Shown one piece after another: positions 17,703 through 61,986 of a stretch of 64,000 bases of DNA. Origin of the DNA: Patescibacteria group bacterium (GTDB lineage Bacteria; Patescibacteriota; Microgenomatia; UBA10105; UBA927). Position 1 is the stretch's first letter; each line of letters opens with the position of its first letter. Made by a program: the position numbers and the translations under genes. The stretch covers positions 78,451 to 142,450 of the forward strand of contig JBBTUH010000002.1 in NCBI GenBank assembly GCA_038063875.1, in the 5' to 3' direction. The notes under the pieces are model-generated. The model was given only the letters and a program-made list of their open reading frames with translations, ran no database searches and was not told where the DNA came from.

Positions 17703-17707
17703 ACTTG

Positions 17708-29303: not shown

Positions 29304-29306
29304 TAT

Positions 29307-34861: not shown

Positions 34862-34866
34862 GATTA

Positions 34867-44593: not shown

Positions 44594-46122
44594 GATCGAC
44601 GACTAATCGTATATATCCATACAAGATACATGACACCAAATGCAAAAGAAATGATATCCGTAATTAACCGAAATCCAGTTTCACGAAATGATGCTTCTAG
44701 CTTACGGCTTCCCGCAGAAACATTCACGCGCATTACTCCATGAGTATTTGTATAGTCAATCGGCGTAAGCTTTCCATCTATAGTCACTCCCCATCCTGGA
44801 TAATAAATAGTATTTATTTGAACGATGCTGTCTGACCGTGCCTCAACAATGCCATCAATATACTGCGGTGTTTCTTTGCCCGAAAAATATGTTGCATCAC
44901 CTGAGTGTACTTCTACTTTTTTACTCGCGCGAGTGGTTTGGATAACTTGCACCCATCTGGGCATATATTCATTTTTCACAGTCGTCGTACCCTCATTTGT
45001 GCTGTAATACCCCTCAATGCGATCGCTATATCGAATCTTTGTTTGTTGAAAAAGTGTATACCCTCCTAATGCAATGAGCATAATGATAAAAATATATATT
45101 CTGCTCTTCTTTTGCACCAGAGACATAGCGGCTGATATGCCAACAGCTCCGATCATCGTGCTTACGGATAAAAATCTATAGGGAAACTGGATAAATGACG
45201 ATAAGGAAGGCACGCTGCTCCATAAAACAGCACTGATTGGGAGAGAAAGGATAGATGCCAGAAGTACAATGATCGCGCAAGCGCGTTCAAATGCTGTAAA
45301 TTTTGCACGTCGTATGAATAAAATATAGAGTGCGGCAAGTACCCCAACGCCTAAAAGCCACCAATTTTTGACCGTTATAAAATATGTAAACGTATCGGCT
45401 ACACTCACTCGATCAAAGATAACAAATCGTCTTTCAAAAAGAGCAGGAAGCCAAAAAAATGTCGCCATACCGACACCGATAATCATGCCCTTTATAAATA
45501 CCCATGGTTTAGGCTGCAATCCGACAAGAAGCCAAAGCGGAGCCACAAACAATAACGCCAGTGAATTATGACCCAAAATAAGAACAGCCGTGGCTATCGG
45601 AACGATCCAATACACATGTGCCATAATCCCATACAAGAGCATGCTCGCCGGCAAAAATGCAAAAATTTCTCCGACAGATCCGCGGGTAAATACATCAAAT
45701 GTTACGTACGGACTAAGCACAAAAGATGCCGCCCCGCCAAGAGATGAAAGCGTTTCATATTTTTTCCGCAGAGCCAAATACAAAAAACTACCAGAGCCGA
45801 TAATAGAAATTGCAAAAATTATTTTTATCACATCAACAAAAGAAAATCCCAAAAATCGAAAAAAAGAACCTACATAAAGAAATCCGGGATACAAAAAATT
45901 GGAAACGGGATACCCGTAATTATGGTATAAGCGACCCAAAAATCTCACAGGGAATTGACCATCTGCCAAACTTTGATAAAACGCAGACAATCGGATGACC
46001 ATCCAATCACCATCATCTGTGATAAAAAATCCATGCCTAAAAAGTGGCCACAAAAGTACTATAGAGACTGCGATCACTCCCGCAAATCCAATCAGGAAAC
46101 CATACGTTTTTCGCTTCTTCAT
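44590..46122 (-). CDS. Large polytopic membrane protein, PF10131-like putative GT-C glycosyltransferase (tandem paralog)
   Basis: The N-terminal motif is FFITDDGDWMVIRLSAFYQSLADGQFPVRFLGRLYHNYGYPVSNFLYP. Confidence 0.55.
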   Translation of the reverse strand: MKKRKTYGFLIGFAGVIAVSIVLLWPLFRHGFFITDDGDWMVIRLSAFYQSLADGQFPVRFLGRLYHNYGYPVSNFLYPGFLYVGSFFRFLGFSFVDVIKIIFAISIIGSGSFLYLALRKKYETLSSLGGAASFVLSPYVTFDVFTRGSVGEIFAFLPASMLLYGIMAHVYWIVPIATAVLILGHNSLALLFVAPLWLLVGLQPKPWVFIKGMIIGVGMATFFWLPALFERRFVIFDRVSVADTFTYFITVKNWWLLGVGVLAALYILFIRRAKFTAFERACAIIVLLASILSLPISAVLWSSVPSLSSFIQFPYRFLSVSTMIGAVGISAAMSLVQKKSRIYIFIIMLIALGGYTLFQQTKIRYSDRIEGYYSTNEGTTTVKNEYMPRWVQVIQTTRASKKVEVHSGDATYFSGKETPQYIDGIVEARSDSIVQINTIYYPGWGVTIDGKLTPIDYTNTHGVMRVNVSAGSRKLEASFRETGFRLITDIISFAFGVMYLVWIYTISRRS

Positions 46123-47681
46123 AATATATGTGATGGAGGGAGCTCTATCGTATACAATCGCATATACTTTCCTTCACGTTTGCCTTTTTCATACTGCCCC
46201 AAAAGCGTCACGTACCAATCTTTTGGAGGTGTTTGTTTCTCATTGAGCACTAAATATGTGGGTCCTTTTTGTATCGCTTCTATAACTTGTGTTGGCACAC
46301 TATCAGGAAGCGGCCAAATACCAACAATTGTTATATTAGGATTTGATACCAAATAAATTTCAAGTGCATACGGAAGCAGTCCAAAAGTGCCATCAGTAAA
46401 TACCGTTATATGATGGTTGTTTGCTTCAGTTTTTAAAAATGATACAACGTGGGGAATACCCCAACCAGATGGCCAATCTTCTAGATATTGCGCCCTATCT
46501 GAAAACGGCAACGGTGCGTTCCATGGATCTCTAATAACCACGTAGCTTACCATCGAGCTAGGAACTATCAGTACAAACACAAAGACCACCTTTACAATCG
46601 GTCGTCTCATCCGTTCCCAAATTTTTACAATTGTATCTGCGGCAACGATAAAAAGTGGTATAGTCATAAAAAGCGTGAACCGTGGATAGAGAACTTTTGC
46701 AAAAGTCGCAAGTCCGACAAAGGGAATTGCCCACCACATATACAAAACTAAGCGTTCTCGCCATTTTGTCGTTATAAAAAACAGTGGTGCAAATGAAGCT
46801 ATAAATATTGGCAACGTCAAATATGAACGCAACCAATCAAACATCCCACGCATGTTCCCTACCAAATATCGAAACGGCTGATCAAACCACTCTGAGAGAG
46901 TAAAGAGAAATACACTATCCTTTTGACCCACCATGTGGAAAAATGGTGACAGCCTAAGCACACTATAGACAGCTTGCGACAACACAAAAGACACCACAAC
47001 AAGTCCTACAAATCGTACGAGTCGAAAAAGTACCTTTTCCTTTTTAAAGTCAAACAATAGTGTGCTAAATGGCAACAAATAGAGGCTAAGAAATCCTGAG
47101 CTTTTGTTGAGCATCCCAGCGCCCAAAAGTAACCCCAATAACAATGCAGTATCAAGTCTGCCTTTACGTACCAAAATAATCGTAAGATACAGATTCCAAA
47201 TCGAAAACATCGACACCATAGAGTCATAGAGCGCCATACGGTCATACAGAAGCGTAAACGGCGACAAAAGATATAGAGCTGACGCAACAAACGCGACACG
47301 AACACTTGTAAATAAGATATACGTCACAGCCCATATTCCCAAAAGCGTCCCAAAACCAGCCACGACAGACGTAAGTCGACCTACAAATAACGGATCAGCA
47401 TCTACCAGCTTAAGAAGCATCATTATTACCCACGTAAACATGGGTTGTTTGCCATCAGTCAACGAAATAAATCGCCAATTCGCATCCTGACTTCCAATTT
47501 GTGACCATCGGATATAAATAGCTTCATCGGTAAATATGGGGAGCGCCGTCAAATTCGTGAGGCGAGTGACTACATAAAACCCCACCATAGCCAAAGCTAC
47601 CAGAACAATGCCAAAGAAGCGCTTTTTGTTACCCTGCATACTCTTAATTATATCGAATTGGGGACAATACAAGCAAACCAA
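46119..47681 (-). CDS. ArnT/PMT-type GT-C membrane glycosyltransferase
   Basis: The N-terminal motif is LTALPIFTDEAIYIRWSQIG, a DE motif. The protein is 520 aa and polytopic. Confidence 0.55.
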   Translation of the reverse strand: MVCLYCPQFDIIKSMQGNKKRFFGIVLVALAMVGFYVVTRLTNLTALPIFTDEAIYIRWSQIGSQDANWRFISLTDGKQPMFTWVIMMLLKLVDADPLFVGRLTSVVAGFGTLLGIWAVTYILFTSVRVAFVASALYLLSPFTLLYDRMALYDSMVSMFSIWNLYLTIILVRKGRLDTALLLGLLLGAGMLNKSSGFLSLYLLPFSTLLFDFKKEKVLFRLVRFVGLVVVSFVLSQAVYSVLRLSPFFHMVGQKDSVFLFTLSEWFDQPFRYLVGNMRGMFDWLRSYLTLPIFIASFAPLFFITTKWRERLVLYMWWAIPFVGLATFAKVLYPRFTLFMTIPLFIVAADTIVKIWERMRRPIVKVVFVFVLIVPSSMVSYVVIRDPWNAPLPFSDRAQYLEDWPSGWGIPHVVSFLKTEANNHHITVFTDGTFGLLPYALEIYLVSNPNITIVGIWPLPDSVPTQVIEAIQKGPTYLVLNEKQTPPKDWYVTLLGQYEKGKREGKYMRLYTIELPPSHIL

Positions 47682-47689
47682 AGGGAATA

Positions 47690-48772
47690 CTATTTTTTAA
47701 ACCTAACCTGTGAAGCGAAAAATGCCACGAGCGATCCTACTACCGCGATAAAGATAATACTTGTTTTAAGGTACTGTGATTGCGTAGTATAGCTTCCGGT
47801 GTACAGGTATGGAACATAAGAAAGAAGTAAGCCTACAGAGAGAATACTAAATGCGCTATAGACCCCTTTGCGATTCGGATCTAGTGCGACAAATGGGAGT
47901 ACCCAAACAAGATACCATGGGAGAAATTCTCGCTTTATGACAGCAACAGTTAGACCTACCATCATTGCCAAAAACATAAGCACCTTATCAGGCTTTATCG
48001 CATACAACGGTACAAGTGTTAGTGTCATGAGCTTTGCCGCGATGGACATAGAAAGCCAAAACCATGAAGCAATCATATCCTTGTGGGACAAATACCAAAA
48101 ACTCACCAGCATAAACGCTACAAGCACGATATCATTGTGAGAGCTTACCAATGTTTCTACAATAATAAGCGGATTGAGGGCAAACATCGCAAGTCCATAT
48201 GTCGCGTCAGCAGCCCGCTCTTTCTTTAGAATTTTTTCAATCATCAAACATGAAAGGAGATAAAAGAGTGCAATCAATGCTTTCATATTTATCATGATCA
48301 AAATAAAATACCCAAACCCCAATACATATGGGACCAACGACAAAAGTATCCATAATGGGGCGTAGGCACTCGATAAATGCGTCCATCGCATAAAATTTAA
48401 CCATGGATCAACTCCTGCAAACATAAGTGGCGTGACCATATATGGATTCTTATGGTACAAAAGCACTGTTTTTGCTGTAAACATATAGTTAAAGAAATCA
48501 TAGGAAAATGCTGCTGGGTATGAAATAACAAGCGTCACGACAAGAATAAATATCACCTTCCAAACGAACGATCGATCAAAAATTCCCTTCTTTACACGAG
48601 CCAAAACAGTGACATACAAAAGAAAAAATAACGTAAGAATCGCTATATAAAGAAATGAAGACAGCGGACGATTATAGTATCCTATATATTGAAACGATCT
48701 TTGCACTGTCTGTACGAGACTTGCCCGGGAAAGCGTCAAATTCAAATCGACCTGCGTATAAGAATACATCAA
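47690..48772 (-). CDS. Polytopic membrane protein of about 360 aa, putative membrane glycosyltransferase (paralog of 12079..13179)
   Basis: The motif NPLIIVETLVSSHNDIVLVAFMLVSFWY matches NPLVIIETFVSGHNDTFMMALVLYG in gene 12079..13179. Confidence 0.45.
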   Translation of the reverse strand: MMYSYTQVDLNLTLSRASLVQTVQRSFQYIGYYNRPLSSFLYIAILTLFFLLYVTVLARVKKGIFDRSFVWKVIFILVVTLVISYPAAFSYDFFNYMFTAKTVLLYHKNPYMVTPLMFAGVDPWLNFMRWTHLSSAYAPLWILLSLVPYVLGFGYFILIMINMKALIALFYLLSCLMIEKILKKERAADATYGLAMFALNPLIIVETLVSSHNDIVLVAFMLVSFWYLSHKDMIASWFWLSMSIAAKLMTLTLVPLYAIKPDKVLMFLAMMVGLTVAVIKREFLPWYLVWVLPFVALDPNRKGVYSAFSILSVGLLLSYVPYLYTGSYTTQSQYLKTSIIFIAVVGSLVAFFASQVRFKK

Positions 48773-48821
48773 TAACGATAAAGCAGCTATTGTATATCCA
48801 ATAATAACAATGCGAGATAAT

Positions 48822-49574
48822 TTATTTATATCTTCCTCTCAAAGCGTTTATTCTTATATGTACGATATCTATAAAACCTCGTATGCTATCTTTTATAGGA
48901 TTGACCCTACGGGTTTCTACATAATGCCACTCCACAGGAACTTCTTTAATAGAATATCCAAATTTCTTCGCCAAAAAGAGTACCTCTATATCAAATCCTG
49001 CCGTCACCATCGGACCATCTACCTCTGCATTTGTGTTATACACTGAGAGTTTTTTAAATATCTTTGTAGACACTTCTCGTCTAAATGCCTTAAATCCGCA
49101 CTGTGTATCCGTAATACCCCTAAGCCCTAAAACGATCGATCGGATCATCATAAATCCGCGAGCCATAATAACCCGAGACAAAGGTGCGCCCTGTCGATCA
49201 CGATTTCTCGACCCGATCACCACGTCATACCCTTTATCAAAATACAGTAATAACTTCTCAAGCTCCACGATAGGTGTTGCCTGATCTAGATCTGAAAACA
49301 ACACAATGTCGCCTTTTGCTTTCAGCATTCCAGCAATCACCGTACCCGCCTTTCCACGATGCGTATTATGAAGGATGGTAAATCCAACGTTTGCTCGAGA
49401 AAAAGCGTCAAGAAGTTTCGGTGACTGATCAGTTGATCCATCATCCACGATGATAACTTCCCATGAAAATTTCTGTCGCTCGAGATACCGTGTGACTTTA
49501 TCCAAAGACCCAAGGCGAATATTAGTCTCCTCATTAAAACACGGTATGATGACTGATAAATAGAGATTATTCAA
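48822..49574 (-). CDS. GT2-family glycosyltransferase, DPM1/GtrB-like putative polyprenyl-phosphate sugar synthase
   Basis: Motifs seen are LSVIIPCFNEETNI, IIVDDGSTDQS, FSDLDQATPIVE and TDTQCGFKAF. Confidence 0.7.
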   Translation of the reverse strand: MNNLYLSVIIPCFNEETNIRLGSLDKVTRYLERQKFSWEVIIVDDGSTDQSPKLLDAFSRANVGFTILHNTHRGKAGTVIAGMLKAKGDIVLFSDLDQATPIVELEKLLLYFDKGYDVVIGSRNRDRQGAPLSRVIMARGFMMIRSIVLGLRGITDTQCGFKAFRREVSTKIFKKLSVYNTNAEVDGPMVTAGFDIEVLFLAKKFGYSIKEVPVEWHYVETRRVNPIKDSIRGFIDIVHIRINALRGRYK

Positions 49575-51126
49575 TGATGGTGTCCTTCTTCCCAGTAAAA
49601 TGTACCAACTTCATTATACGTACAAATGAGGATGGCCACTCACCGACTATTTCTGCACGACCAAATCCTGCTATCTCCCACAACGGATGACCGAGAGGTT
49701 TACACTCTGGCTGATCACATATGATGATTAGTTGTTCTGTGACAGTCTTACGGTCTGGGTCTATGTCCGTTCGCTCTATAGTGACCGGTGGATTTCCCCA
49801 TATCTCAAAAAAATATCGATACACATGATCAGAATTAAAATTAGCAAGCAATGCAAAATTAAATGGTTTACCTTCAGCCTTGTCAAACGCGTCCTTGGCT
49901 ACCATCCGTGCTTGCGCTAATTGATTATTTGGTGGCGCCACAAATGGCCTTCCTTGCCAATTAAAAAACAGCAGAGCACTCAATAATACCCCAGCGACCA
50001 TAAAACCAATTTTTGAACTTGAAAGAACACGAAACAGCATGGCAACCAGTAAAAACGGTAATGGGAAAAAAATACCGAAGTAATAATCATATATTCCTTT
50101 TTTATATAACCCAAACAACATAAGTGGTATAAAAAACCACAACCCAAATAATACGATTGATCTATACCATTTTTTTGAAGCGCTTAAGAAGCCTAAAAGA
50201 TAACTTATAATAAGTGCCACTGACGACCACAAAGGAAACTTAATAACGCTCTCATAGAGTACGCGACTAGTTACAGACGCATTGACGAGTTGTTCAGGCG
50301 GGGGCAGTCGAAACACGAGCCTTCCAAACAATCGATATGAGACATCGGTAATGATGGCTATAAATTGATTTGAGGTAAAGCCAGTATCATTGCCTGCAAG
50401 GATAAATCGCGTAATAGAAATCGTGTTTGGAAATCCGTGTCGCAACTCAAACGCCAAAAACGGTGCATACCCTACAAGAAATCCTACAATCACAAACGCA
50501 TACAATTTCAAGTATTTTTTGCTTCTCCCATACAACAAAAACCATACCAAAACTACAGGGAACAAAAAGAAAAAAAGATAATGTAATTGTATGCCAATCC
50601 CTAAAGTAACGCCGATCAAAAAAAGTGATCGTTTAGAAACATCTATGGATACTTTCCATAGAAGGTATATAAGTGATAATGCAAAAAAGGGTACGACATT
50701 TGGATTCCATGAAGATCGTGAATACGCGATGATAAGCGGCGACATGCTGTATAACGCTGCAGCCACCAAACCCACTGACACATCCACCATGTCTTTTCCT
50801 GCCTTATATAACAAAATCACGGTTGCGATCCCAAAAAGTCCTACCATAACAGCCGCTCCAGCAGGATTTAAACCAGATACCCACACAAACGGCATCATGA
50901 AATAATAGTACATTGGTCCCAAAAAAAACCCTCCGACGGAAGCAGTTGGTCCCAAAAGCGTAAATTTATGATCGACAATCATGCGTTTTACGACCAACAT
51001 GTCCCTGCCCTCATCTCCCAAAAACGTCATGTATTCAGAAACTCTGTACAACCGAAGATACGCGGCAACCAAAACTAACCCAAAAAGGAGTATGTGGTGC
51101 CAATGAGCAAATATGAAGCGCTTCAT
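49567..51126 (-). CDS. ArnT/PMT_2-like GT-C membrane glycosyltransferase (paralog of 22207..23700)
   Basis: The N-terminal motif is YMTFLGDEGRDMLVVKRMIVDHKFTLLGPTASVGGFFLGPMYYYFMMPF. The protein is 519 aa and polytopic. Confidence 0.55.
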   Translation of the reverse strand: MKRFIFAHWHHILLFGLVLVAAYLRLYRVSEYMTFLGDEGRDMLVVKRMIVDHKFTLLGPTASVGGFFLGPMYYYFMMPFVWVSGLNPAGAAVMVGLFGIATVILLYKAGKDMVDVSVGLVAAALYSMSPLIIAYSRSSWNPNVVPFFALSLIYLLWKVSIDVSKRSLFLIGVTLGIGIQLHYLFFFLFPVVLVWFLLYGRSKKYLKLYAFVIVGFLVGYAPFLAFELRHGFPNTISITRFILAGNDTGFTSNQFIAIITDVSYRLFGRLVFRLPPPEQLVNASVTSRVLYESVIKFPLWSSVALIISYLLGFLSASKKWYRSIVLFGLWFFIPLMLFGLYKKGIYDYYFGIFFPLPFLLVAMLFRVLSSSKIGFMVAGVLLSALLFFNWQGRPFVAPPNNQLAQARMVAKDAFDKAEGKPFNFALLANFNSDHVYRYFFEIWGNPPVTIERTDIDPDRKTVTEQLIIICDQPECKPLGHPLWEIAGFGRAEIVGEWPSSFVRIMKLVHFTGKKDTIIE

Positions 51127-51133
51127 GAAAAAT

Positions 51134-52246
51134 TTACTTTGACTTCCAAATTACGCGAGAATACATCAGATAATTCCAAACAAGTCCTATACTCACACCC
51201 AACATATACCAAAGAAAATAGGTATCCAGTCCCGTGATGTGTGTACCTATAAATACTGTTCCAGATTGGATAGATAACCCACCAAAAGCAGCTACATTAA
51301 ACTGTACGAATTTCGGCAACAAGGCCAATCCACGAATTTTACGATGATGAAATGTCCATGTATTGTTTAAAATAAAATTAGAGACGATAGCAAACTCCGC
51401 GCCAGTGGCACTTCCAATTGCCGGATGAAATCCGGATTTCACTAAAAATTCCAGAATCACTGTATTGATCAAAAATCCGATAGCTCCAACAACAGCAAAC
51501 CTCGGAAATGATCCCTTCATAAGAGCTATATATCGTGAAGACAAAACGAATGAAATAATACTGAGAATATATTCAAGCGGTGCAATTTTAGATCGTCCAA
51601 AGCGCCTGTCTATAAACCGAATAGGAACCTCTGCCACCTTGGCGCCATTTTGCATCGATGTATACAAAAATGCAATTTGAAAAACATAGCCGCTGTACGG
51701 CGAAACGACGACTTTTGCTTTCTGAAAGTACGACGTATAAAACGCTCGATAGCCACCAGTCCAATCATGAACAGTCGTTTTGCCTAATCCGAAACGCACA
51801 AATGTATTTCCTATGACGCTATAAATTTTTCGATGGAGCCCCCAATTCTCTGGTATAGAACCCCCCTTTATATATCTGCTTCCAACTGCAAAATCATACC
51901 CACTTTGTAGTTTCTCTATAAATTGAGGCAATACCGTTGGGTCATGCGACATATCAGCGTCCATTTGTATAAGCATATCGGCGTTTAGTGTATCCACTGC
52001 ATAGGTCATCCCTGCAAGAAGCGCTTTACCCAAACCTTCTTTTTTGCCTGATAAAATATAGACATTTTTATGCGTCTTTTGAAACGCAAGTACGGCAGTC
52101 TTTGTGCCATCCGGCGATGTATCATCGACCACCAATATTTTGAAGGCTATATGAGGAATGGAAGCAATAACCTCGGTTACCGCTTCCAACATAGTTGTGA
52201 TGTTCTCCCGCTCGTTGTATGTCGGTAAGATTATGACTGCGTTCAT
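51134..52246 (-). CDS. GT2 polyprenyl-phosphate sugar synthase (DPM1/GtrB-like) fused to a C-terminal GtrA-like 4-TM domain
   Basis: The N-terminal motifs are VIILPTYNERENI, VVDDTSPDGT, QMDADMSHDP and GSRY. The C-terminal roughly 120 aa contain four hydrophobic helices (FAVVGAIGFLINTVILEF...FVQFNVAAFGGLSIQSGTVFIG), as seen in GtrA-family proteins. Confidence 0.65.
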   Translation of the reverse strand: MNAVIILPTYNERENITTMLEAVTEVIASIPHIAFKILVVDDTSPDGTKTAVLAFQKTHKNVYILSGKKEGLGKALLAGMTYAVDTLNADMLIQMDADMSHDPTVLPQFIEKLQSGYDFAVGSRYIKGGSIPENWGLHRKIYSVIGNTFVRFGLGKTTVHDWTGGYRAFYTSYFQKAKVVVSPYSGYVFQIAFLYTSMQNGAKVAEVPIRFIDRRFGRSKIAPLEYILSIISFVLSSRYIALMKGSFPRFAVVGAIGFLINTVILEFLVKSGFHPAIGSATGAEFAIVSNFILNNTWTFHHRKIRGLALLPKFVQFNVAAFGGLSIQSGTVFIGTHITGLDTYFLWYMLGVSIGLVWNYLMYSRVIWKSK

Positions 52247-52261
52247 AAAGTTTTCTAGAGG

Positions 52262-53218
52262 CTAAACGCGCGCTCTCCAGTATTCAAGAAGGTCTTTTAG
52301 CGTCTTCTCAAAGGGGATTTCTGGTTGCCATCCAGTTTTGTCGACAAACATAGAATTATCGCCTATCAGGATTGGCACATCAGACGGTCTCATACGAGCT
52401 GGATCTTGTTTAATTTGTACTTTCACAGTCGAGAAAGACAAAAGCATATCTAAGACCGTCTTAATCTTAAACGCTTTACCCGTACAAATATTGTATACCT
52501 GCCCTGCGTCACATTTCTCGACAGCAAGTGTGTATGCTCTGACCATATCTCGTACATCTGTGTAGTCTCTTTCCGCATCGAGGTTTCCCACAGAAATGAC
52601 AGGTTCCTGCTTACCCTTTTCAATAAGCGCAATTTGCTTAGAAAACGTGCTTTCTGCAAACGTCTCACCTCTTCGAGGACCTGTATGATTAAACCCTCTA
52701 GTTCTCACTATTTTGAGCTTATATGATTCGAAGTACTGGTATCCTAAATAATCCATCGCTACCTTTGATACAGCGTATGGTGAGAGTGGTCGTAATGGAT
52801 TCGTTTCCTTTATCGGTACTTCGCTCGGAAACACCATACCATACTCTTCAGAAGAACACGCAATTTGTATAACTGGATTAATACCCGCTTGCTTGACCGC
52901 TTCAAAAAGATTTGCAGAACCGACGATATTTACCTCAAGGGTAATAGCGGGAGATCCCCATGACGTCGGCACGAAGGACTGCGCAGCCAAGTGATAAATC
53001 ACATCTGGCTTCATTTCGCTGATCGTCGCATACAAGCTATGTGAATCCATCAAATCTGCATCGACAAGTTTGATTTTGTCTTTTATGTGCTCGATATGAT
53101 CGGTTTTACTTCGGTGTCTATATAAGCCGTATAACTCAATGTCTTTTTGCGTCAATAAATATTCTGCCAAATGACTTCCCACGAACCCTGTCACGCCTGT
53201 AATTAATACTTTTTTCAT
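52262..53218 (-). CDS. GDP-mannose 4,6-dehydratase/GDP-4-keto-6-deoxymannose reductase-like enzyme (Gmd/Rmd family, short form)
   Basis: The segments LITGVTGFVGSHLAEYL, HLAAQSFVPTSW, SPYAVSKVAMDYL, FNHTGPRRGETF, QDPARMRPSD and TGWQPEI closely parallel the Gmd blocks (FNHESPRRGETF) and the Rmd blocks (HLAGQTYVPEAF, QDPARMR, TGWKPEI). Confidence 0.65.
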   Translation of the reverse strand: MKKVLITGVTGFVGSHLAEYLLTQKDIELYGLYRHRSKTDHIEHIKDKIKLVDADLMDSHSLYATISEMKPDVIYHLAAQSFVPTSWGSPAITLEVNIVGSANLFEAVKQAGINPVIQIACSSEEYGMVFPSEVPIKETNPLRPLSPYAVSKVAMDYLGYQYFESYKLKIVRTRGFNHTGPRRGETFAESTFSKQIALIEKGKQEPVISVGNLDAERDYTDVRDMVRAYTLAVEKCDAGQVYNICTGKAFKIKTVLDMLLSFSTVKVQIKQDPARMRPSDVPILIGDNSMFVDKTGWQPEIPFEKTLKDLLEYWRARV

Positions 53219-53229
53219 AATTCCTCCTT

Positions 53230-54543
53230 TTACATTCTACCTACACCATAATACATAAAGCCAAGCTCGCGAACCCGAGTTGGCTCATAAATGTTGCGAC
53301 CATCAAATAATACCAAATCTTTCATGCCTTTGGCTAGACGCACAAGATCTAATTGTCGAAATTCGTTCCACTCTGTCACAATCACGACCGCATCTGCATC
53401 TTTGGCTGCATCGTATGCATCACTTGCATACGTGACGGTTTTTCCTAATATCTGTTTTGCATTCAAAAGTGCAATCGGATCAAATACGCGTATATCAGCG
53501 CCTTTTGCAACCAACGATTTAATAATTTCAATCGATGGCGCATCACGCATATCATCTGTGTCTGGCTTAAACGCCAAACCCAATACCGCAATTTTTCTGG
53601 CTTTCAGCTTCCCGTCAAAATGTTTGACAATCTTTCCCACAAAATGTTCATGCATAGTTTTGTTGATATGTGTCACTTCCTTTAGAAGAGAAAAATCATA
53701 CCCGCAATCCTCTGACAGCGCCACGAGTGCTTTGACATCTTTCGGGAAGCAACTCCCTCCGTATCCTACCCCCGGATACATAAAGCTTCTCCCTATGCGC
53801 CTATCAAGCCCGACTCCTTCTAATACTTTTTCCGCATCAGCGCCCACTTTCTCAGACAAAAGTGCTATCGCATTAGCAAAAGAAATTTTTGTCGCAAGCA
53901 TTGAATTTGATGCATATTTGATAAGTTCTGCGGCCTCGACATTACAAAGCACTACTTTGCCATCTATGGGCTTGTGAAGCTCCAAGAGTAAATCTCGTGC
54001 GCGATCTGATGTGGTACCGATGACGACGCGATCTGGATGAAGCGTATCTGACAGTCCAGAACCTTCTCGCAAAAATTCAGGAACAGACGCAATCGCCACT
54101 GATCCACCCTCTGGCAGGACTGACTGCAAAAGCGAGAGAACTTTCTTCCCAGTCCCTGGTGGTACGGTACTTTTAGTAGCGACTACTTTATATCCGACGA
54201 TATTTTTTCCGACTTGCCTAACTGCCGTAAATACACTGGACAGATCTGCCTCACCATTTTCTTTTGGCGGTGTACCAACGGCTATAAAGATTATCGTGGA
54301 CTTCTCCACTGCTTTCTTATAATCGAGCGTAAAGATAAGTCTGCCCGCTTTGAGGTTTCGGTTTAATACTTCGGATAATCCCGGTTCATAGATGATCGGG
54401 TCGCCGTGTTGCAACCGTTCGATTTTCTCTGGCGTCCTTCCAACTACCCACACCGTGTTACCAAGCTCTGCAAATACTGCAGCGGTAACGAGTCCAACAT
54501 ACCCATGACCAACAAATGTAATAGTCATATGCCTAGTATACAC
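53230..54543 (-). CDS. ugd: UDP-glucose 6-dehydrogenase (nucleotide-sugar dehydrogenase family)
   Basis: It has the N-terminal Rossmann motif ITFVGHGYVGLVTAAVFA and the active-site motif GGSCFPKDVKAL, which is typical of Ugd/TuaD. Confidence 0.8.
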   Translation of the reverse strand: MYTRHMTITFVGHGYVGLVTAAVFAELGNTVWVVGRTPEKIERLQHGDPIIYEPGLSEVLNRNLKAGRLIFTLDYKKAVEKSTIIFIAVGTPPKENGEADLSSVFTAVRQVGKNIVGYKVVATKSTVPPGTGKKVLSLLQSVLPEGGSVAIASVPEFLREGSGLSDTLHPDRVVIGTTSDRARDLLLELHKPIDGKVVLCNVEAAELIKYASNSMLATKISFANAIALLSEKVGADAEKVLEGVGLDRRIGRSFMYPGVGYGGSCFPKDVKALVALSEDCGYDFSLLKEVTHINKTMHEHFVGKIVKHFDGKLKARKIAVLGLAFKPDTDDMRDAPSIEIIKSLVAKGADIRVFDPIALLNAKQILGKTVTYASDAYDAAKDADAVVIVTEWNEFRQLDLVRLAKGMKDLVLFDGRNIYEPTRVRELGFMYYGVGRM

Positions 54544-55405
54544 TCTCTTGTGCTTTCATTGCAGCAAGACCGTCATGAAATGTTTTCATCGATACACCAA
54601 TGGCTTGTATTTTACTATTTGATAACGACGCGTATTGTGGAACCGGTGCTCTATGCAAAAAATACTCACGAAATGTTGTTTTTTTTATCAGCTCCTCCGG
54701 AAAACCATATTGCTCTGCGATTTCTTTGGCAGTATTGTACGGCGAAAGCGAATCATCTCCGACGACATGGTACAGCCCATATGCCTTCTTTTGCAATAAC
54801 GTGTCAATTGCAATCGCGATATCATCCACAAAAGTCGGCACAAACAACTGATCAGTAGGTGCTACGATATCGCTTCCTGCTGTCAGACGATCGATCATTT
54901 TATGAACAAAATCCTTTTTTCCTATCGGGTTACTTCGATATGGATTTGCAATCCGAATGACTAGACCGTGTATACCAAGCGACAACACGTGCTTAGCACC
55001 TTCAGTTTTTGTAATAGCATACCAACCTTCTGGATTTGGTGTATCTGTCTCTTCATATATCTTTTTCGTACCATCAAATGCGTAGTCTGTATCGATATAC
55101 AACAAATGCTTTCGTGTGGTGTGACAAATCTCCACAATATTTTTTGTCGCCTCTACATTTACCTGCCACGCAACACTTTCTTTTCCTTTCTCGCGCTCCT
55201 TCTCTGCTTTTTGTACATCAGTGTATGCCGCAAGATGAAAAACCCAATCAGCAGTGCTTTTGGTAAGTACATCAAATACACTCTTGTGATTAGTAATATC
55301 GATACCATTTTCTAATCCTAACGATTCAAATCGTATATGATCAGAGAGAAGTTCGATTATTCTTGAACCCACAAGTCCTGATAATCCTGTCCCTATGACA
55401 TTCAT
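54533..55405 (-). CDS. dTDP-4-dehydrorhamnose reductase-like enzyme (RmlD family)
   Basis: The segments HLAAYTDVQKAEKE, YIDTDYAFDG, YAITK (YxxxK) and GLYHVVGDD parallel RmlD (AAAHTAVDKAESE, YSTDYVFPG). The start was set at MNVIGTGLSG (55405), which gives an ATGA overlap with rmlB. The ORF track extends it to 55444. Confidence 0.6.
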   Translation of the reverse strand: MNVIGTGLSGLVGSRIIELLSDHIRFESLGLENGIDITNHKSVFDVLTKSTADWVFHLAAYTDVQKAEKEREKGKESVAWQVNVEATKNIVEICHTTRKHLLYIDTDYAFDGTKKIYEETDTPNPEGWYAITKTEGAKHVLSLGIHGLVIRIANPYRSNPIGKKDFVHKMIDRLTAGSDIVAPTDQLFVPTFVDDIAIAIDTLLQKKAYGLYHVVGDDSLSPYNTAKEIAEQYGFPEELIKKTTFREYFLHRAPVPQYASLSNSKIQAIGVSMKTFHDGLAAMKAQESVY

Positions 55406-56394
55406 AATGTTGTGGCGTATTTGCCCGACTTCACCCGTTGCCACCAGTCTGGATTATTTTTATACCAGTCCACGGTAATTTTTAGCCATGTATCAAAATC
55501 ATGCTGTGGCTTCCACCCTAATTCATTTTGAATTTTTCCCCAATTCACTGCATATCGTCGATCATGACCTAATCGATCTTTCATAAACTCGACACTACTT
55601 ATATCTTTGCCAAGAAGTGACACGATCTTTTCTACAATCGTGAGATTATCCATATCCGATGTAAGACCGCCGACACAATACGTCTCACCGACACGACCTT
55701 TTGAAAGCACAATATCTATTGCGCGACAATGATCTTCGACATAGAGCCAATCACGAACATTTTTACCGTCACCGTATAAAGGAACGCGCTTGCCTTCCAA
55801 TAAATTAGTAATCACAAGAGGGATAAGCTTCTCTGGGAACTGGTATGGACCATAATTATTGGAACAATTAGTAATAGTGATTGGTAAACCAAATGTATGA
55901 TAATACGCACGAACCAAATGATCTGAAGAGGCTTTACTAGCCGAATACGGACTTCTGGGGTCATATGATGTTCGTTCATCAAAAGTACTCGAATCACCTA
56001 GTTTAAGCGACCCGAACACTTCATCCGTCGATACATGATGAAAACGCGATACTTTAGCACTCAGTGCCGCATCCAACAGAACCTGTGTTCCCAGCACATT
56101 TGTCCGCACAAATGGTGCTGCATCCTGTATCGAGCGGTCTACATGACTCTCAGCCGCAAAATGGACGACGACGTCGATCCCTGCCATCGCCTTCTTCACT
56201 TCTTGTGGATTACAGATATTTCCCTGAATAAACGTATACTGACTGTTCTGCTCAACAGCCTTTAAATTTTCTAAATTTCCCGCGTAGGTGAGCGCATCAA
56301 AATTAACGATGGCATCCGCCGGATGTTGGGCGAGCCAATAATGAATGAAATTTGATCCAATAAATCCAGCACCCCCTGTAACGAGAAGTTTCAT
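55402..56394 (-). CDS. rfbB: dTDP-glucose 4,6-dehydratase
   Basis: Motifs seen are MKLLVTGGAGFIGSNFIHYWL, HFAAESHVDRSI and YSASKASSDHLVRAY, which is the canonical RmlB block. Confidence 0.85.
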   Translation of the reverse strand: MKLLVTGGAGFIGSNFIHYWLAQHPADAIVNFDALTYAGNLENLKAVEQNSQYTFIQGNICNPQEVKKAMAGIDVVVHFAAESHVDRSIQDAAPFVRTNVLGTQVLLDAALSAKVSRFHHVSTDEVFGSLKLGDSSTFDERTSYDPRSPYSASKASSDHLVRAYYHTFGLPITITNCSNNYGPYQFPEKLIPLVITNLLEGKRVPLYGDGKNVRDWLYVEDHCRAIDIVLSKGRVGETYCVGGLTSDMDNLTIVEKIVSLLGKDISSVEFMKDRLGHDRRYAVNWGKIQNELGWKPQHDFDTWLKITVDWYKNNPDWWQRVKSGKYATTL

Positions 56395-56398
56395 GGTA

Positions 56399-57151
56399 CT
56401 AAAACGTTCCTTCCTTCACCCGTTTTGCAACTTGAACGTTTGCTAAGAGTAGCTCGTCGTGTGATGTCCCTGCATCTACCCACCAGTTGATAATTTCACA
56501 ACCAAGTGTACCCTCTTGTAGGTATTTATTATTAAGATCCGTAACTTCAAGCTGCCCTCTCTGTGAGGGAGTAAGCGACCGTACAAAGTCAAAGACACGA
56601 TCGTCGTACATATAAATACCCGTTTGTGCGATGTCTGATTTCGGTTTTTCTGGTTTCTCCTCTACCGAGAGAACTTTGCCTGAATCGTTCATCTCTATCA
56701 CGCCATATTGTTGTGCATCCATATCACTTCGTTTTACACCAAACAACATCGCTCCTTTTTTCTCTGTTGTAAGCCTTGCTTCAAACCGCTTAATCGAAGA
56801 CGCCAAATCGAAATTAAATATGTTATCTCCAAGGATGACCAAGAGTGGTTGTTTATGTGCAAACTCCTCTGCCAATGATAAGCCATCTGCTATACCACCT
56901 GTCGGATTTTTTTGAATTGCATAGTACAATCGTAATCCGAAGTCATCGCCTGACTTTAAAAGGGTTGCGAAGTCACCGACATGATCACCGCTTGTGACGA
57001 TGAGCACTTCCTTCATCCCTACCTTTTGCATCATTTCTAAGGGATAATAAATCATCGGCTTATTGTAGACGGGGAGCAAGTGTTTATTGGTCACCCATGT
57101 CAACGGTCTAAGTCGCGTCGCTAATCCACCTGCTAAGATAACACCTTTCAT
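56399..57151 (-). CDS. rfbA: Glucose-1-phosphate thymidylyltransferase (short form, 250 aa)
   Basis: The segment MKGVILAGGLATRLRPLTWVTNKHLLPVYNKPMIYYPLEMM...VILGDNIF closely parallels RmlA (MKGIILAGGSGTRLYPIT...KQLLPIYDKPMIYYPL...VLGDNIF). Confidence 0.8.
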   Translation of the reverse strand: MKGVILAGGLATRLRPLTWVTNKHLLPVYNKPMIYYPLEMMQKVGMKEVLIVTSGDHVGDFATLLKSGDDFGLRLYYAIQKNPTGGIADGLSLAEEFAHKQPLLVILGDNIFNFDLASSIKRFEARLTTEKKGAMLFGVKRSDMDAQQYGVIEMNDSGKVLSVEEKPEKPKSDIAQTGIYMYDDRVFDFVRSLTPSQRGQLEVTDLNNKYLQEGTLGCEIINWWVDAGTSHDELLLANVQVAKRVKEGTF

Positions 57152-57167
57152 AGTACTTTCCCTTTCT

Positions 57168-57416
57168 TTATAGTGACAATGTCAACATCAATACGAGCGC
57201 TATCGCCCCAATGAGGATATATTCTATCACAATTTTTCGATGAAGATTACCAATCATCATATGGTGGATAATACCCCACAATACATACCCAATTGTCGTA
57301 CAGAGACCAACAACCATTTGTGCAGTGGTGTTGCCCCGCATGAGATAAAACATATATATACCAAGGCCGAGGATACCCAATAATACTCCGCCATGCATCA
57401 GTCGATCTTTTTTCAT
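57168..57416 (-). CDS. Small membrane protein (82 aa, 2-3 transmembrane segments)
   Basis: It is hydrophobic throughout and makes an ATGA overlap with the upstream gene. Confidence 0.45.
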   Translation of the reverse strand: MKKDRLMHGGVLLGILGLGIYMFYLMRGNTTAQMVVGLCTTIGYVLWGIIHHMMIGNLHRKIVIEYILIGAIALVLMLTLSL

Positions 57417-58294
57417 ACAAGTGTACCCCGTATCATAAACAAACTTCCTATAAGCATAGTCGCCAAAAATACGATATGCGCCACATTATGACCAGCCAGT
57501 CGCACGATACCCTTCTTGGAGACGACGTACGCGTCTATCGCCATGATTCCCATAAGAAGTCCCACAAATATAAATACTACTTCTCTTGATACGGATGCGA
57601 TATTTATAAGCGGCGCCTTATACACTGCAGTAAACACGGGAGCAACGAGTGGAATCGCCTCGGCTATCAACTCAACAGGTTTTGTCACTGGGGCTGCAGC
57701 TTGCACCTTGGGTATAGTACTCTGTCCGTTTGATGTCCCAAACATCTGAACCACAAGTGTCGTTTCCTCACCTTGTAGCACACCGTTTATTACGGCAAAC
57801 CCTACCTCACGATAGCCTGACTTTACGATATTCTCTCTATGCGTCGGAGAATTCATCCATGCCTCCATCACACCGCCACTTGTCTGAAAGTTTTTTGCTA
57901 AATTTTCGCCAGCTAAGGTGTATTTGTAGCCTGATCCTATAATGAAGTCCCATGGAGTTTTCCCATTCGGGCTATTATGCGCCCAATAATTATTCGCAAA
58001 CATATCAGCCGCTTTTGCGGCTGCAGCTTGCGAGAGGTTACCGTTTAGAGAAAGCGTAGAGAGTCCTGCTGCCTGTCGTTTCGCATTGGTATCGGCTAAT
58101 AACTGCTCTACTCGTATGTCTGTCGCGTAGCCTAATACGTCTGGCATTGTGCCGTGCATGACCCGAATGCCCAAATTAAACACCATAAATATGAGAGCGT
58201 ACGCAAATAACGCGTCGTGATGGAGAGCTTTTGACCGATGGTTATTCCCACTATGCGGAACGATGAAATGATAGAGAAGCTGAAACAATTTCAT
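57413..58294 (-). CDS. CAP/SCP/PR-1-like domain protein, membrane-anchored
   Basis: The core NNYWAHNSPNGKTPWDFI...GENLAKNF...WMNSPTHRENI matches CAP-domain signature blocks. It has an N-terminal transmembrane segment and a C-terminal hydrophobic segment. Confidence 0.6.
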   Translation of the reverse strand: MKLFQLLYHFIVPHSGNNHRSKALHHDALFAYALIFMVFNLGIRVMHGTMPDVLGYATDIRVEQLLADTNAKRQAAGLSTLSLNGNLSQAAAAKAADMFANNYWAHNSPNGKTPWDFIIGSGYKYTLAGENLAKNFQTSGGVMEAWMNSPTHRENIVKSGYREVGFAVINGVLQGEETTLVVQMFGTSNGQSTIPKVQAAAPVTKPVELIAEAIPLVAPVFTAVYKAPLINIASVSREVVFIFVGLLMGIMAIDAYVVSKKGIVRLAGHNVAHIVFLATMLIGSLFMIRGTLV

Positions 58295-58318
58295 AGGATT
58301 ACACTCTATCCATCATAC

Positions 58319-58675
58319 CTACTCTTTGAGAGGTTTATCAAGATAGGTTAGCGTACCGTACTGTGGATGGATGTTTTTCATGGCAGGCATCCCGTTTACC
58401 GATATGCCAAGAAGAAAACCTAATGCATTTGCGACAGTAAACCCCACCCGAAGACCAGTTATGGATCCTTCTTTGTTTACCACTCGTATGTCCGTGAGGT
58501 CAGCCCATGATAGATGATGTTCATACAGTATTTCAGTACAAAGCGGCAACAATCGCACGGATTTACGTAAACCTGTATCTTCATGCTTTGTATACTCTGT
58601 ACCTTGAATATGTAAGGAAACGCTTAGCATAGATGCGTTTGTCGTATCGAGGGTAAGGATTGTTGTAGGCTTCAT
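58319..58675 (-). CDS. tsaB: TsaB (YeaZ)-like protein, N-terminal domain only (118 aa)
   Basis: The segment ILTLDTTNASMLSVSL...GSITGLRVGFTVANALGFLLGISVNG parallels the TsaB N-lobe (LALDTST...GPGSFTGVRIG...A.GLA). It is about half the usual length. Confidence 0.55.
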   Translation of the reverse strand: MKPTTILTLDTTNASMLSVSLHIQGTEYTKHEDTGLRKSVRLLPLCTEILYEHHLSWADLTDIRVVNKEGSITGLRVGFTVANALGFLLGISVNGMPAMKNIHPQYGTLTYLDKPLKE

Positions 58676-59262
58676 GGTAAGACGACAGCACCCTGCCGGA
58701 TAATTGTGTATGGATCAGTAGTACAATCTACGACTGTTGAAGAACTATTACCAGAGCACTTTCCTTCCAAAACGAAATCAACAAGAGATATGAGATGTTT
58801 ATCTACATCACGCAGGGAAAATGGCGTCTTTTCCCCGTGAAAATTAGCGGATGGTCCGACAATCGGCGCCCCAACGCCTGCTATCATCGATAGCGCCTGT
58901 TCATGATTTGGCATCCGTACACCCACGGTATTTTTCCCACCACGAATGGGGGAGTATATACGATCCGTATCGCACGCGGCAACGATAGTGAGTCCACCGG
59001 GCCAATATGTTTTCATCAGATGTCGCACAATACTAGAAGGATGTACGAAATAGGGCAGTGCCATACCGTACGAATCCACAAGTACTGGCATAGCTTGTGT
59101 CAACGGTCGTTTACGAATATGGAAAAGCCGATCAACCGCCCTTTGATTATCTATCCTACATCCTATGCCGAACGCCGTATCCGTCGCAAATATAACGATA
59201 CCTCCATCGTTTAACACCTTTATAGCGTGTATGATTTTTGTGATATCAGTGTGCATTTTCAT
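58672..59262 (-). CDS. tsaC: L-threonylcarbamoyladenylate synthase (TsaC/YrdC/Sua5 family)
   Basis: The segments AIKVLNDGGIVIFATDTAFGIGC...GLTIVAAC...VGVRMPNH...APIVGPSANFHGEKTP form a YrdC-fold signature. Confidence 0.75.
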   Translation of the reverse strand: MKMHTDITKIIHAIKVLNDGGIVIFATDTAFGIGCRIDNQRAVDRLFHIRKRPLTQAMPVLVDSYGMALPYFVHPSSIVRHLMKTYWPGGLTIVAACDTDRIYSPIRGGKNTVGVRMPNHEQALSMIAGVGAPIVGPSANFHGEKTPFSLRDVDKHLISLVDFVLEGKCSGNSSSTVVDCTTDPYTIIRQGAVVLP

Positions 59263-59731
59263 ACCATGATTTCATTTCTATTGTACAGTCATGTTGGTCA
59301 TCAGCAAGCGTCTTCAAGGTCACTACAAGTACGGGGTGCTCTATGTTCATACTCCCTAACCGATCCGGCCACTCTATAACCGTCACCGAGCTTTCGTCAG
59401 CAAGCATTTCAGCGATCCCGACACCTTCCGCATCACTTGGTCCAAGTGTACGATACAGATCAAGATGGTAAAGAAAGCTATCAGGCGAAACTTTTGGTGT
59501 TCTGTAACGTCGTACAATAATAAACGTGGGGGAGAGAAGACGAGTAGTAACACCCATACCCCTTGCCAGACCGCGTACAAATGTAGTTTTTCCACTACCT
59601 AAATCGCCCACACACATGATCACATGAGGGATAGTGTCTATCACCTTTTCAAGATAGGAAGCCCCAAGCGCTGCACCAATTTTTTCAGTTTCTTGGGCGC
59701 TTTTGGTACGAACGTGTATAGGAAAATCCAT
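59246..59731 (-). CDS. tsaE: tRNA t6A biosynthesis ATPase TsaE (YjeE)
   Basis: It has the P-loop VIMCVGDLGSGKTTFVRGLARGMGV and the downstream segment SPTFIIVRRY...HLDLYRL-like (HLDLYRTLG), as in TsaE. Confidence 0.75.
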   Translation of the reverse strand: MDFPIHVRTKSAQETEKIGAALGASYLEKVIDTIPHVIMCVGDLGSGKTTFVRGLARGMGVTTRLLSPTFIIVRRYRTPKVSPDSFLYHLDLYRTLGPSDAEGVGIAEMLADESSVTVIEWPDRLGSMNIEHPVLVVTLKTLADDQHDCTIEMKSWYENAH

Positions 59732-60839: not shown

Positions 60840-60845
60840 AGACAG

Positions 60846-61967: not shown

Positions 61968-61986
61968 GCATGCGTGTAACTTTAAA

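Follow-up and report, generated by a model that had tools for sequence, protein, structure and literature searches.

The stretch of DNA analysed here, called the window in the following, comprises 64,000 nucleotides (nt) of contig JBBTUH010000002.1 of a Patescibacteria group bacterium, and its gene of interest lies on the minus strand at 51134..52246. The gene encodes a polyprenyl-phosphate sugar synthase that ends in a membrane domain of the GtrA/DPMS type and can best be called a bacterial variant, with DPM1 motifs, of the architecture known from PfDPMS, the dolichol-phosphate mannose synthase (DPMS) of Pyrococcus furiosus. The open reading frame (ORF) begins with an ATG and codes for 370 amino acids (aa), which are divided as follows, with the supporting data in brackets:

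51134..52246, minus strand: polyprenyl-phosphate sugar synthase with C-terminal GtrA/DPMS-type membrane domain, 370 aa (ORF, Pfam, PDB sequence match, Foldseek)
51581..52246, minus strand: predicted cytoplasmic catalytic domain of the GT-A fold and of glycosyltransferase family 2 (GT2), about residues 1-222 (Pfam, PfDPMS residue map, alignment of 39 homologues)
51509..51580, minus strand: amphipathic interface helix and linker, about residues 223-246 (AlphaFold helix 224-244, mean hydropathy 1.25)
51146..51508, minus strand: four-helix GtrA/DPMS transmembrane domain, residues 247-367 (PF04138, profile of standalone GtrA proteins, AlphaFold helices)

An earlier reading of this DNA from its letters alone (the sequence-only reading) had recognized DPM1/GtrB motifs in the N-terminal part and four GtrA-like helices in the C-terminal part, and both assignments were borne out. 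All four motifs are found where they had been placed, with YNERENI at residue 10, DDTSPDGT at 41, QMDADMSHDP at 94, and GSRY at 122. Pfam recognizes Glycos_transf_2 (PF00535) at residues 5-175 (E 4.3e-25, 89 bits, cut-off 23.3) and GtrA_DPMS_TM (PF04138) at residues 249-367 (E 1.4e-19, 70.8 bits, gathering cut-off 26.1), the latter over profile positions 1-117 of 117. The assignment to GT2 is based on this match to the hidden Markov model (HMM) above the gathering score, on the GT-A fold of the structural model, and on the DxD motif D96-A97-D98. The AlphaFold2 model, which was built from 39 homologues (mean predicted local distance difference test score (pLDDT) 88.9, predicted template modelling score 0.75), consists of a GT-A beta/alpha domain, a long interface helix at 224-244 that in the PDB sequence alignment aligns with the IFH2/pre-transmembrane region of PfDPMS, and four membrane helices at 247-270, 275-298, 306-338, and 340-366. 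Lys and Arg residues cluster before the first transmembrane helix (TMH1; two residues), in the loop between TMH2 and TMH3 (four), and at the C-terminus (three), with one and none in the two remaining loops, and this pattern agrees with an N-in/C-in topology that leaves the catalytic domain on the cytoplasmic side.

The key catalytic residues, which are D96-A97-D98, H101, S123-R124-Y125, R139, S143, GYVFQ at 186-190, and R214 and K220 of the acceptor loop, are invariant across the 39 homologues. In the membrane domain, polar residues are N261 in TMH1, the group N290/N294/N295-W297-T298-F299 at the end of TMH2, and N358 in TMH4, and three of them, N261, N290 and N358, are invariant in the same 39 close homologues. 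A sequence repeat of the TMD1/TMD2 type has been reported for PfDPMS; when residues 245-302 were aligned locally with residues 305-370, the alignment was no better than that of shuffled sequences (z ~0).

PfDPMS, a 'type-III DPMS' that is represented by the PDB entries 5mlz, 5mm0, 5mm1 and 9ep0, is the full-length relative of the synthase in the PDB, with residues 3-367 matching residues 25-372 of the 5mlz chain (E 5e-38). The top three Foldseek matches of the model in the PDB are PfDPMS entries, with template modelling (TM) scores of 0.69-0.75 over the whole chain (E ~1e-22), and the PfDPMS sequence rebuilt from the PDB alignment scans with the same two-domain Pfam architecture, PF00535 followed by PF04138 at 88 bits. 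Identity is about 29-31% (106/344 aligned positions; 30% by BLASTP), and while PfDPMS comes from a hyperthermophilic archaeon, the synthase described here belongs to a bacterium of the Patescibacteria. The architecture of a DPMS with a GtrA domain has been solved structurally since 2017. The sequence-only reading had implied that a GtrB-GtrA fusion is unusual, which did not stand: PF04138 is itself named 'GtrA/DPMS, transmembrane domain', PfDPMS has the same architecture, and the fusion is common, so that the combination of GT2 and GtrA/DPMS domains is already known and not new in kind. In the literature, nothing specific was found on bacterial GT2-GtrA fusions or on glycosylation in Patescibacteria.

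How common the fusion is became evident in a search of 5.8 billion proteins, in which the synthase has 3,339 homologues. The best 120 of these are all 364-391 aa long, have both domains and are 58-82% identical, and the named ones among them are Patescibacteria and Gottesmanbacteria. The two closest genomes (L001 and L002, with 79% and 64% identity) have been deposited as 'uncultured Gammaproteobacteria bacterium', which is probably a taxonomic mis-assignment because every other relative with a name comes from Patescibacteria or Gottesmanbacteria; the gene order in L001 is the same as here. One 'Deinococcales' GT2 entry was seen among the cluster members of the fused relatives.

Residues were mapped to PfDPMS by the PDB sequence alignment with a chain offset of +22, and the roles of the conserved catalytic and acceptor residues of PfDPMS have been described (PMC5526996, PMC12992685). 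D96 and D98 of the DxD motif (PfDPMS D89-A90-D91), H101 (H94), R124 of the SRY motif (R117), R139 (R131), S143 (S135), R214 (R202) and K220 (K208) are all conserved, as is D42, which corresponds to a guanine contact of PfDPMS. Other positions differ: Q93 of PfDPMS is replaced by S100, P95 by D102, K178 by V188 inside GYVFQ, and the gating residue F338 by L355, in an alignment column that is mixed L/V/F/M among the relatives of the membrane domain. The polar pocket of PfDPMS, formed by N248, N277 and R341, corresponds to N261, N290 and N358 of the synthase, and at the R341 position all type-III enzymes outside the Thermococcales have Asn (PMC12992685).

These positions decide how the synthase relates to the type-III group, which has been defined by the motif 89-DADxQHPP-96 with x = L/F/Y, by 178-KIL-180, and by Phe or Tyr at F338, and which has been concluded to be restricted to hyperthermophilic archaea (PMC12992685). 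The synthase has D96-A-D-M-S-H-D-P103, with Met as x, in place of the first motif, V188-F189-Q190 are aligned to the second, and the gating aromatic residue is Leu355. As judged by sequence, it therefore falls outside the strict type-III definition because the DADxQHPP, KIL and F338 features are absent. The acceptor-phosphate residues (S123-R124-Y125, R139 and S143) and the polar pocket (N261, N290 and N358, with Asn at the R341 position), which also belong to the definition, are present as in the type-III enzymes.

To which proteins the membrane domain itself is related was seen in a search with residues 236-370 against 1.84 billion cluster representatives, which gave 1,585 matches at E <= 1e-3. 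Among the best 150 of these 1,585 matches, about 90 are standalone proteins of at most 210 aa, 34 are proteins of 331-420 aa with an N-terminal GT2 domain, and a few are longer fusions. A profile made from 87 standalone GtrA-sized relatives matches the C-terminus of the synthase at E 3.6e-49, and the same profile detected no second GtrA-type domain in the six-frame translation of the 64-kb window, where the only other small polytopic ORFs outside larger ORFs encode VanZ-like and DUF5656-like proteins. The GtrA/DPMS domain is also found N-terminally fused to a PMT_2 glycosyltransferase of the GT-C fold (P0216, 687 aa) and to a cellulose-synthase-like GT2 enzyme (P0161, 1277 aa), so that in different lineages the module is attached to one or the other end of the pathway, which ties it functionally to the synthase step as well as to the GT-C step.

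The three buried asparagines are widespread in this group. In a sample that consists of the nearest relatives of residues 236-370 and is biased toward close relatives, the N261 position is N or Q in 33 of 36 fused proteins, the N290 position is N in 32 and the N358 position is N in 35, and the counts for the same positions in the standalone proteins are 79, 82 and 81 out of 87. It has been stated that the polar-pocket motifs of PfDPMS are absent from GtrA proteins (PMC12992685); the pocket asparagines that appear in the nearest GtrA relatives run contrary to this statement, and they may be taken as a pointer, not as a refutation. In GtcA of Listeria, a conserved asparagine of the fourth transmembrane helix, N132, and R95 are indispensable for glycosylating both polymers (PMC7389260). 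The spacing N358/+4/+9 matches the idea of a mapping to GtcA R95/N132, which was made with no GtcA sequence for comparison and is not relied on.

The synthase gene is surrounded by genes of the same orientation, of which the closest are:

47690..48772, minus strand: MptA_B/GT87-like polytopic membrane glycosyltransferase, 360 aa (GT87 E 0.003; PF26314 on orthologues)
48822..49574, minus strand: second GT2 enzyme without membrane helices, 250 aa (Pfam GT2, PDB matches to ArnC and PfDPMS)
49567..51126, minus strand: ArnT-like GT-C glycosyltransferase, 519 aa (Pfam PMT_2, AlphaFold, fold match to ArnT)
52262..53218, minus strand: short-chain dehydrogenase/reductase (SDR) of the GDP-mannose dehydratase/reductase group, 318 aa (best PDB match 2pk3)
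53230..54543, minus strand: UDP-glucose 6-dehydrogenase, 437 aa (Pfam UDPG_MGDP_dh N/central/C; NCBIfam)

The GT-C gene starts 7 nt after the stop codon of the synthase and overlaps the following GT2 gene by 8 nt. Its product had been called ArnT-like by the sequence-only reading, and this agrees with a PMT_2 match of 37.5 bits and with an AlphaFold model (pLDDT 84.7) whose best fold match is ArnT of Cupriavidus metallidurans (5f15/5ezm, TM 0.61-0.63); an invariant G37-D38-E39-G40-R41-D42 follows the first helix. The product of 48822..49574, said to be another DPM1-like GT2, is indeed a GT2 enzyme, but the 'DPM1-like' part was not upheld, as it shares only 25% identity with the fused enzyme and is about as close to ArnC (2.8e-15 in the PDB) as to PfDPMS (2e-14), and by these matches it is a polyprenyl-phosphate-sugar-synthase-like GT2, not a specifically DPM1-like one. 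The GT87 match of 47690..48772 is weak, and a nearly identical gene and orthologues are precomputed as PF26314 (MptA_B_family). For both the GT-C protein and the GT87-like protein, no sequence matches were obtained in the PDB.

Upstream of the synthase, at a distance of 15 nt, lies the SDR gene, whose product is most similar to GDP-6-deoxy-D-lyxo-4-hexulose reductase (2pk3, E 1.2e-84) and then to GDP-heptose and GDP-mannose 4,6-dehydratases, so that it is possible from its sequence that the SDR supplies or modifies a GDP-sugar donor. The gene adjoins the synthase in most relatives and is absent in one of them (L088). Although the SDR is closest to an Rmd-type reductase, the window showed no clear gene for a GDP-mannose 4,6-dehydratase. 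The UDP-glucose 6-dehydrogenase (NCBIfam nucleotide-sugar dehydrogenase, 435.5 bits, cut-off 189.8) belongs to the same co-directional gene string, and further along it, at 54533-57151 on the minus strand, there are RmlA, RmlB and RmlD-like genes without RmlC, which is present in the relatives L083 and L088. The sugar-nucleotide pathways of the window thus look incomplete or non-canonical. The string is headed by genes for a membrane protein with a CAP domain (cysteine-rich secretory protein family) and for an 82-aa DUF5656-like protein (57168-58294, minus strand), two genes with a possible role in the same surface system that also head the conserved string in the relatives L081, L085, L086 and L088.

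In the direction of transcription, the fused synthase is followed by the PMT_2 GT-C, the 250-aa GT2, the MptA_B-like GT-C, and another PMT_2 GT-C. The order of synthase, PMT_2 GT-C, GT2 and MptA_B-like GT-C is kept in all seven related gene orders examined, which include relatives with 79%, 63-64% and 59% identity and also two members in which the identity of the membrane domain drops to 43-46%. By analogy, this module looks like two GT-A/GT-C pairs that share one GtrA-type module, as do the Csd pairs with CflA. A promoter and terminator scan of 46000-59000 gave counts at chance level and is uninformative, but it fits one long co-directional gene string.

The module belongs to a single glycosylation island that extends from about 1.0 to 57.2 kb of the window and contains about 20 polytopic GT-C-like proteins with matches to PMT_2/PMT, PTPS_related, YfhO or weakly GT87, or with no Pfam match. 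Five DPMS-like GT2 enzymes are encoded in the window, and only that of 51134..52246 has a membrane domain:

4859-51126: GT-C-like proteins, for example at 10490-12133, 14443-23700, 23699-30959 (plus strand), 32756-38209, 42929-48772, and 49567-51126
4069-4896, 6106-6807, 42217-42972, and 48822-49574, minus strand: four membrane-less DPMS/DPM1-like GT2 enzymes, 233-275 aa (about 200-220 residues aligned)

Most of the GT-C-like proteins fall into five paralogue families with 24-35% identity, which are five PTPS_related-like, five PMT-like, three YfhO-like and two GT87/MptA_B-like proteins and two that are related to the ArnT-like gene, leaving those at 4859, 20931 and 46119 ungrouped. Such a battery of GT-C transferases that depend on lipid-linked sugars looks unusually dense for what seems to be a small Patescibacteria genome. 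The island also encodes additional enzymes of the GT2 and GT4 families, a flippase resembling Wzx, a methyltransferase, and proteins for sugar nucleotides, and between its glycosyltransferase genes there are an AAA_14/DUF4143 ATPase (6804-8165) and a PaaX-like regulator-type protein (9434-10255), both on the minus strand. Two same-strand ORF pairs on the minus strand, 54533-55444/55402-56394 and 13176-13925/13685-14461, overlap by 43 nt and 241 nt, respectively; they are listed from the first possible start, and for the downstream genes, 13176-13925 and 54533-55444, a later start codon is probably the true one. The right flank of the window (59644-63602, minus strand) encodes a VanZ-like protein, a lamin-tail-domain protein, an M23 peptidase, FtsX and FtsE, and resembles a module of cell division and cell-wall hydrolases that adjoins Sua5/TsaE genes.

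With a probability of roughly 0.8, the protein is a monotopic-plus-polytopic membrane enzyme of the DPMS type in which a cytoplasmic inverting GT2 domain, interface helices that lie on the membrane and a GtrA/DPMS domain are combined, and which would make a lipid-linked sugar for GT-C enzymes. The GT2 domain would transfer one hexose from a nucleotide sugar to polyprenyl phosphate at the cytoplasmic face of the membrane, most likely with GDP-mannose, or a GDP-manno sugar closely related to it, as the donor. The lipid-linked sugar would then be exposed on the outer face, where the ArnT-like GT-C, and possibly other GT-C enzymes of the island, could use it and pass the sugar to an acceptor of the envelope. 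This would correspond to a three-component scheme of GT-A synthase, GtrA-type translocator and GT-C, with the first two parts in one polypeptide, and by analogy the fusion may couple the synthesis to the translocation.

That the sugar is mannose or a manno-type GDP sugar has slightly better than even odds. In BLASTP comparisons, residues 1-235 are closest to a membrane-less 279-aa actinobacterial homologue from Microthrixaceae (L006; 40% identity, 156 bits), which carries the same QMDADMSHDP, GSRY and G-Y-x-FQ motifs, and they are less similar to PfDPMS (33%, 108 bits) and to the neighbouring GT2 (25%, 58 bits); what we take to be the human DPM1 sequence gave 36% and 125 bits, which serves as a lead only. 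The catalytic domain is thus closer to DPM1/Ppm1-like enzymes than to PfDPMS, ArnC or the neighbouring GT2, as judged by sequence scores and motifs. The JGI name of the orthologues is dolichol-phosphate mannosyltransferase. Characterized members of the MptA_B/GT87 family use polyprenyl-phosphate mannose, and a member-like GT-C of this kind is conserved in the module. The SDR gene beside the synthase, with its relation to GDP-mannose dehydratases and reductases, is another lead toward mannose.

Several observations weigh against this assignment. No NCBIfam model reaches its cut-off with the synthase, the best being PgfS with 64 bits versus 500, so that the substrate is not assignable by curated family, and of the donor and acceptor contacts of PfDPMS, Q93 and K178 are replaced by S100 and V188. 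The genes for UDP-glucose dehydrogenase and dTDP-rhamnose synthesis in the same gene string make other donors possible, and both the SDR and the UDP-glucose dehydrogenase are missing upstream of the synthase in the relative L088. It is a serious alternative, although with somewhat less than an even chance, that the sugar is not mannose but D-rhamnose or another 6-deoxyhexose, glucose, a sugar derived from uronic acid, or an N-acetylhexosamine, in which case the donors would come from the sugar-nucleotide genes that lie just upstream of the synthase. The relation of the adjacent SDR to a reductase that makes GDP-D-rhamnose would agree with this, as would the directly upstream UDP-glucose dehydrogenase and RmlA/B/D-like genes, the lack of a curated family that gives the substrate, the replacement of Q93 and K178, and the finding that PfDPMS itself is somewhat active with GDP-Glc (PMC5526996). 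On the other hand, the DPM1/Ppm1-type motifs are kept, as are the guanine contact D42 and, of the four mannose contacts of PfDPMS, three (D96, H101 and R124), and the MptA_B/GT87-like GT-C is a conserved part of the module. The SDR and UDP-glucose dehydrogenase genes are not always upstream, and what the sugar-nucleotide genes provide might just as well go to the island's many cytoplasmic GT2 and GT4 enzymes.

How the product reaches the outer face is a separate question from the synthesis. For PfDPMS, it has been proposed in 2026 that the membrane domain flips the enzyme's own product, a hypothesis from one crystal state in which an upside-down dolichyl-phosphate mannose (Dol-P-Man) is found at the pocket equivalent to N261/N290/N358 (PMC12992685). 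Tentatively, and at somewhat less than even odds, the same may be suggested for the bacterial synthase, whose own membrane domain would translocate the lipid-linked sugar through the polar pocket of N261, N290 and N358; the conservation of the buried asparagines and the fact that the GtrA-type domain is the only one detected in the window speak for it. GtcA, a member of the GtrA family, is required for two different sugars linked to C55 polyprenyl phosphate (C55-P-sugars), and the evidence for a flippase function of GtrA is genetic (PMC7389260).

Other data weigh against translocation by the enzyme itself. The gating residue F338 of PfDPMS is Leu in the synthase, and a Wzx-like flippase gene (Polysacc_synt_3) is present in the island at 40778-42220. 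To our knowledge, biochemical flipping has been demonstrated for no member of the family. PfDPMS that lacks residues 230-352 is fully active, and its membrane domain is thus dispensable for catalysis; a paper on PfDPMS also cites a challenge to the flippase role of the GtrA member Rv3789 (as cited in PMC12992685). Small membrane partners can furthermore be helpers of GT-A enzymes in making C55-P-sugars (PMC8035078). All this would be explained if the GtrA-type domain is a mere anchor, a platform for the lipid acceptor or a docking site for the GT-C, and if another protein, such as the Wzx-like protein or some other scramblase, translocates the product, which has a considerable chance of being true, though again less than one in two. 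The activity of the truncated PfDPMS, the hypothetical status of flipping in PfDPMS, the challenged role of Rv3789 and the simple helpers of GT-A enzymes are as expected in this case, as is the Polysacc_synt_3 gene in the island, Wzx-type flippases having been noted in some such systems (PMC8035078). However, three buried asparagines that are conserved in fused and standalone relatives alike would be superfluous in an anchor, and N132 and R95 of GtcA are essential residues. Moreover, the four other DPMS-like GT2 enzymes of the window do without a membrane domain, and the recurrent fusion of GtrA to a synthase or to a GT-C points to a step of the pathway and not to a passive anchor.

A more far-reaching version of self-translocation is unlikely but can be formulated, since the GtrA-type domain of the synthase is the only one found in the 64-kb window: the fused enzyme might be a synthase-translocase hub that moves its own product and also those of the four membrane-less GT2 enzymes to the approximately 20 GT-C proteins. 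As the asparagine triad is common to standalone GtrA proteins, to the bacterial fusions and to the PfDPMS pocket, it could in this case be a general flipping site of the GtrA family. If true, this would contradict both the published confinement of type-III-like DPMS to hyperthermophilic archaea and the published absence of the pocket from GtrA proteins.

Two further explanations concern the identity of the protein. It is very improbable that the protein is an ordinary enzyme of the ArnC/GtrB type, the C-terminal helices of which would then be a two-helix tetramerizing anchor. ArnC and GtrB (PDB 9hwj, 8vxh, 5ekp) rank next among the relatives of the catalytic domain in the PDB, have a GT-A domain with interface helices, and catalyse the same type of reaction, but they have two C-terminal helices and form tetramers, whereas the synthase has four helices of the GtrA family. 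Their sequence matches are limited to the catalytic part and end at residues 260 and 147 of the synthase (4-260 and 4-147, E 1e-13 to 1e-10), the fold matches to the model reach a TM score of about 0.5 only, the NCBIfam ArnC model scores 56 bits versus a cut-off of 529, and DAD-M-S-H stands in place of the DADLQ(N/H)PP motif of ArnC and PfDPMS. Together with the four membrane helices of the model and the full-length PF04138 match, this led us to reject the anchor of the ArnC/GtrB type, and the doubt that the C-terminal helices might miss the GtrA HMM or be such an anchor is thereby settled. That the fusion is an artefact, in which a GT2 gene has been joined to a separate gtrA gene through a frameshift, the loss of a stop codon or chimeric assembly, can practically be dismissed, as the 120 best homologues from many independent assemblies carry both domains, an independent ENA contig with a 100% identical neighbouring gene carries the same 370-aa gene, and no gap occurs at the junction in the alignment to the solved PfDPMS chain.

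It is an old question how lipid-linked monosaccharides such as Dol-P-Man and C55-P-sugars cross membranes, and in bacteria the main candidates for this step are GtrA proteins. The design of a DPMS with a GtrA domain is abundant in mesophilic Patescibacteria, where it has DPM1-like motifs and the same buried asparagines and lies beside an ArnT-like GT-C, and these bacterial fused synthases therefore offer many natural variants for probing the flipping hypothesis. The synthase gene is at the same time an entry point to a very large, uncharacterized surface-glycosylation system.

Among the known systems, the synthases of the DPM1/Ppm1 type share with the enzyme described here the motifs PTYNEREN, DD-x-SPDGT, DAD-x-SH-x-P, GSRY, GYVFQ, and R-x-G-x-SK. 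Eukaryotic DPM1 and actinobacterial Ppm1 either lack a membrane domain or have one helix, whereas here a four-helix GtrA domain is fused to the catalytic part. Ppm1-type enzymes depend on the partner Ppm2/Lnt. Separate partners are needed also by DPM1, for which they are DPM2/DPM3 (PMC5526996). A separate small polytopic membrane partner is known also from GacI-GacJ of Streptococcus pyogenes, where it is encoded by its own gene and has been described as an activator of the synthase (PMC8035078). The NCBIfam PpgS model scores 40.5 bits with the synthase, versus a cut-off of 370. PpgS-Rv3632 of M. tuberculosis is presumably another split pair of a GT2 enzyme and a small membrane protein.

By function, the synthase resembles PfDPMS combined with the bacterial three-component scheme, in which a GT-A enzyme makes the polyprenyl-phosphate monosaccharide, a GtrA-family protein is required for this product to be used outside, and a GT-C enzyme transfers the sugar (PMC8035078, PMC7389260). 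GtrB-GtrA-GtrC of Shigella phages and, in Firmicutes, CsbB/GtlA-GtcA-YfhO/GtlB and CsdAB/CD/EF-CflA follow this same three-part logic, and in Lactococcus the one GtrA-type protein CflA serves several CsdAB/CD/EF pairs of GT-A and GT-C (PMC8035078). In the Patescibacteria module, all three parts are present, with the GT-A and GtrA parts fused and an ArnT-like GT-C directly downstream. It differs from the known systems in that these have GT-A and GtrA as separate proteins while here they are one polypeptide, and in that its GT-A part is DPMS/DPM1-like and not a GtrB/CsbB-like enzyme with a two-helix anchor.

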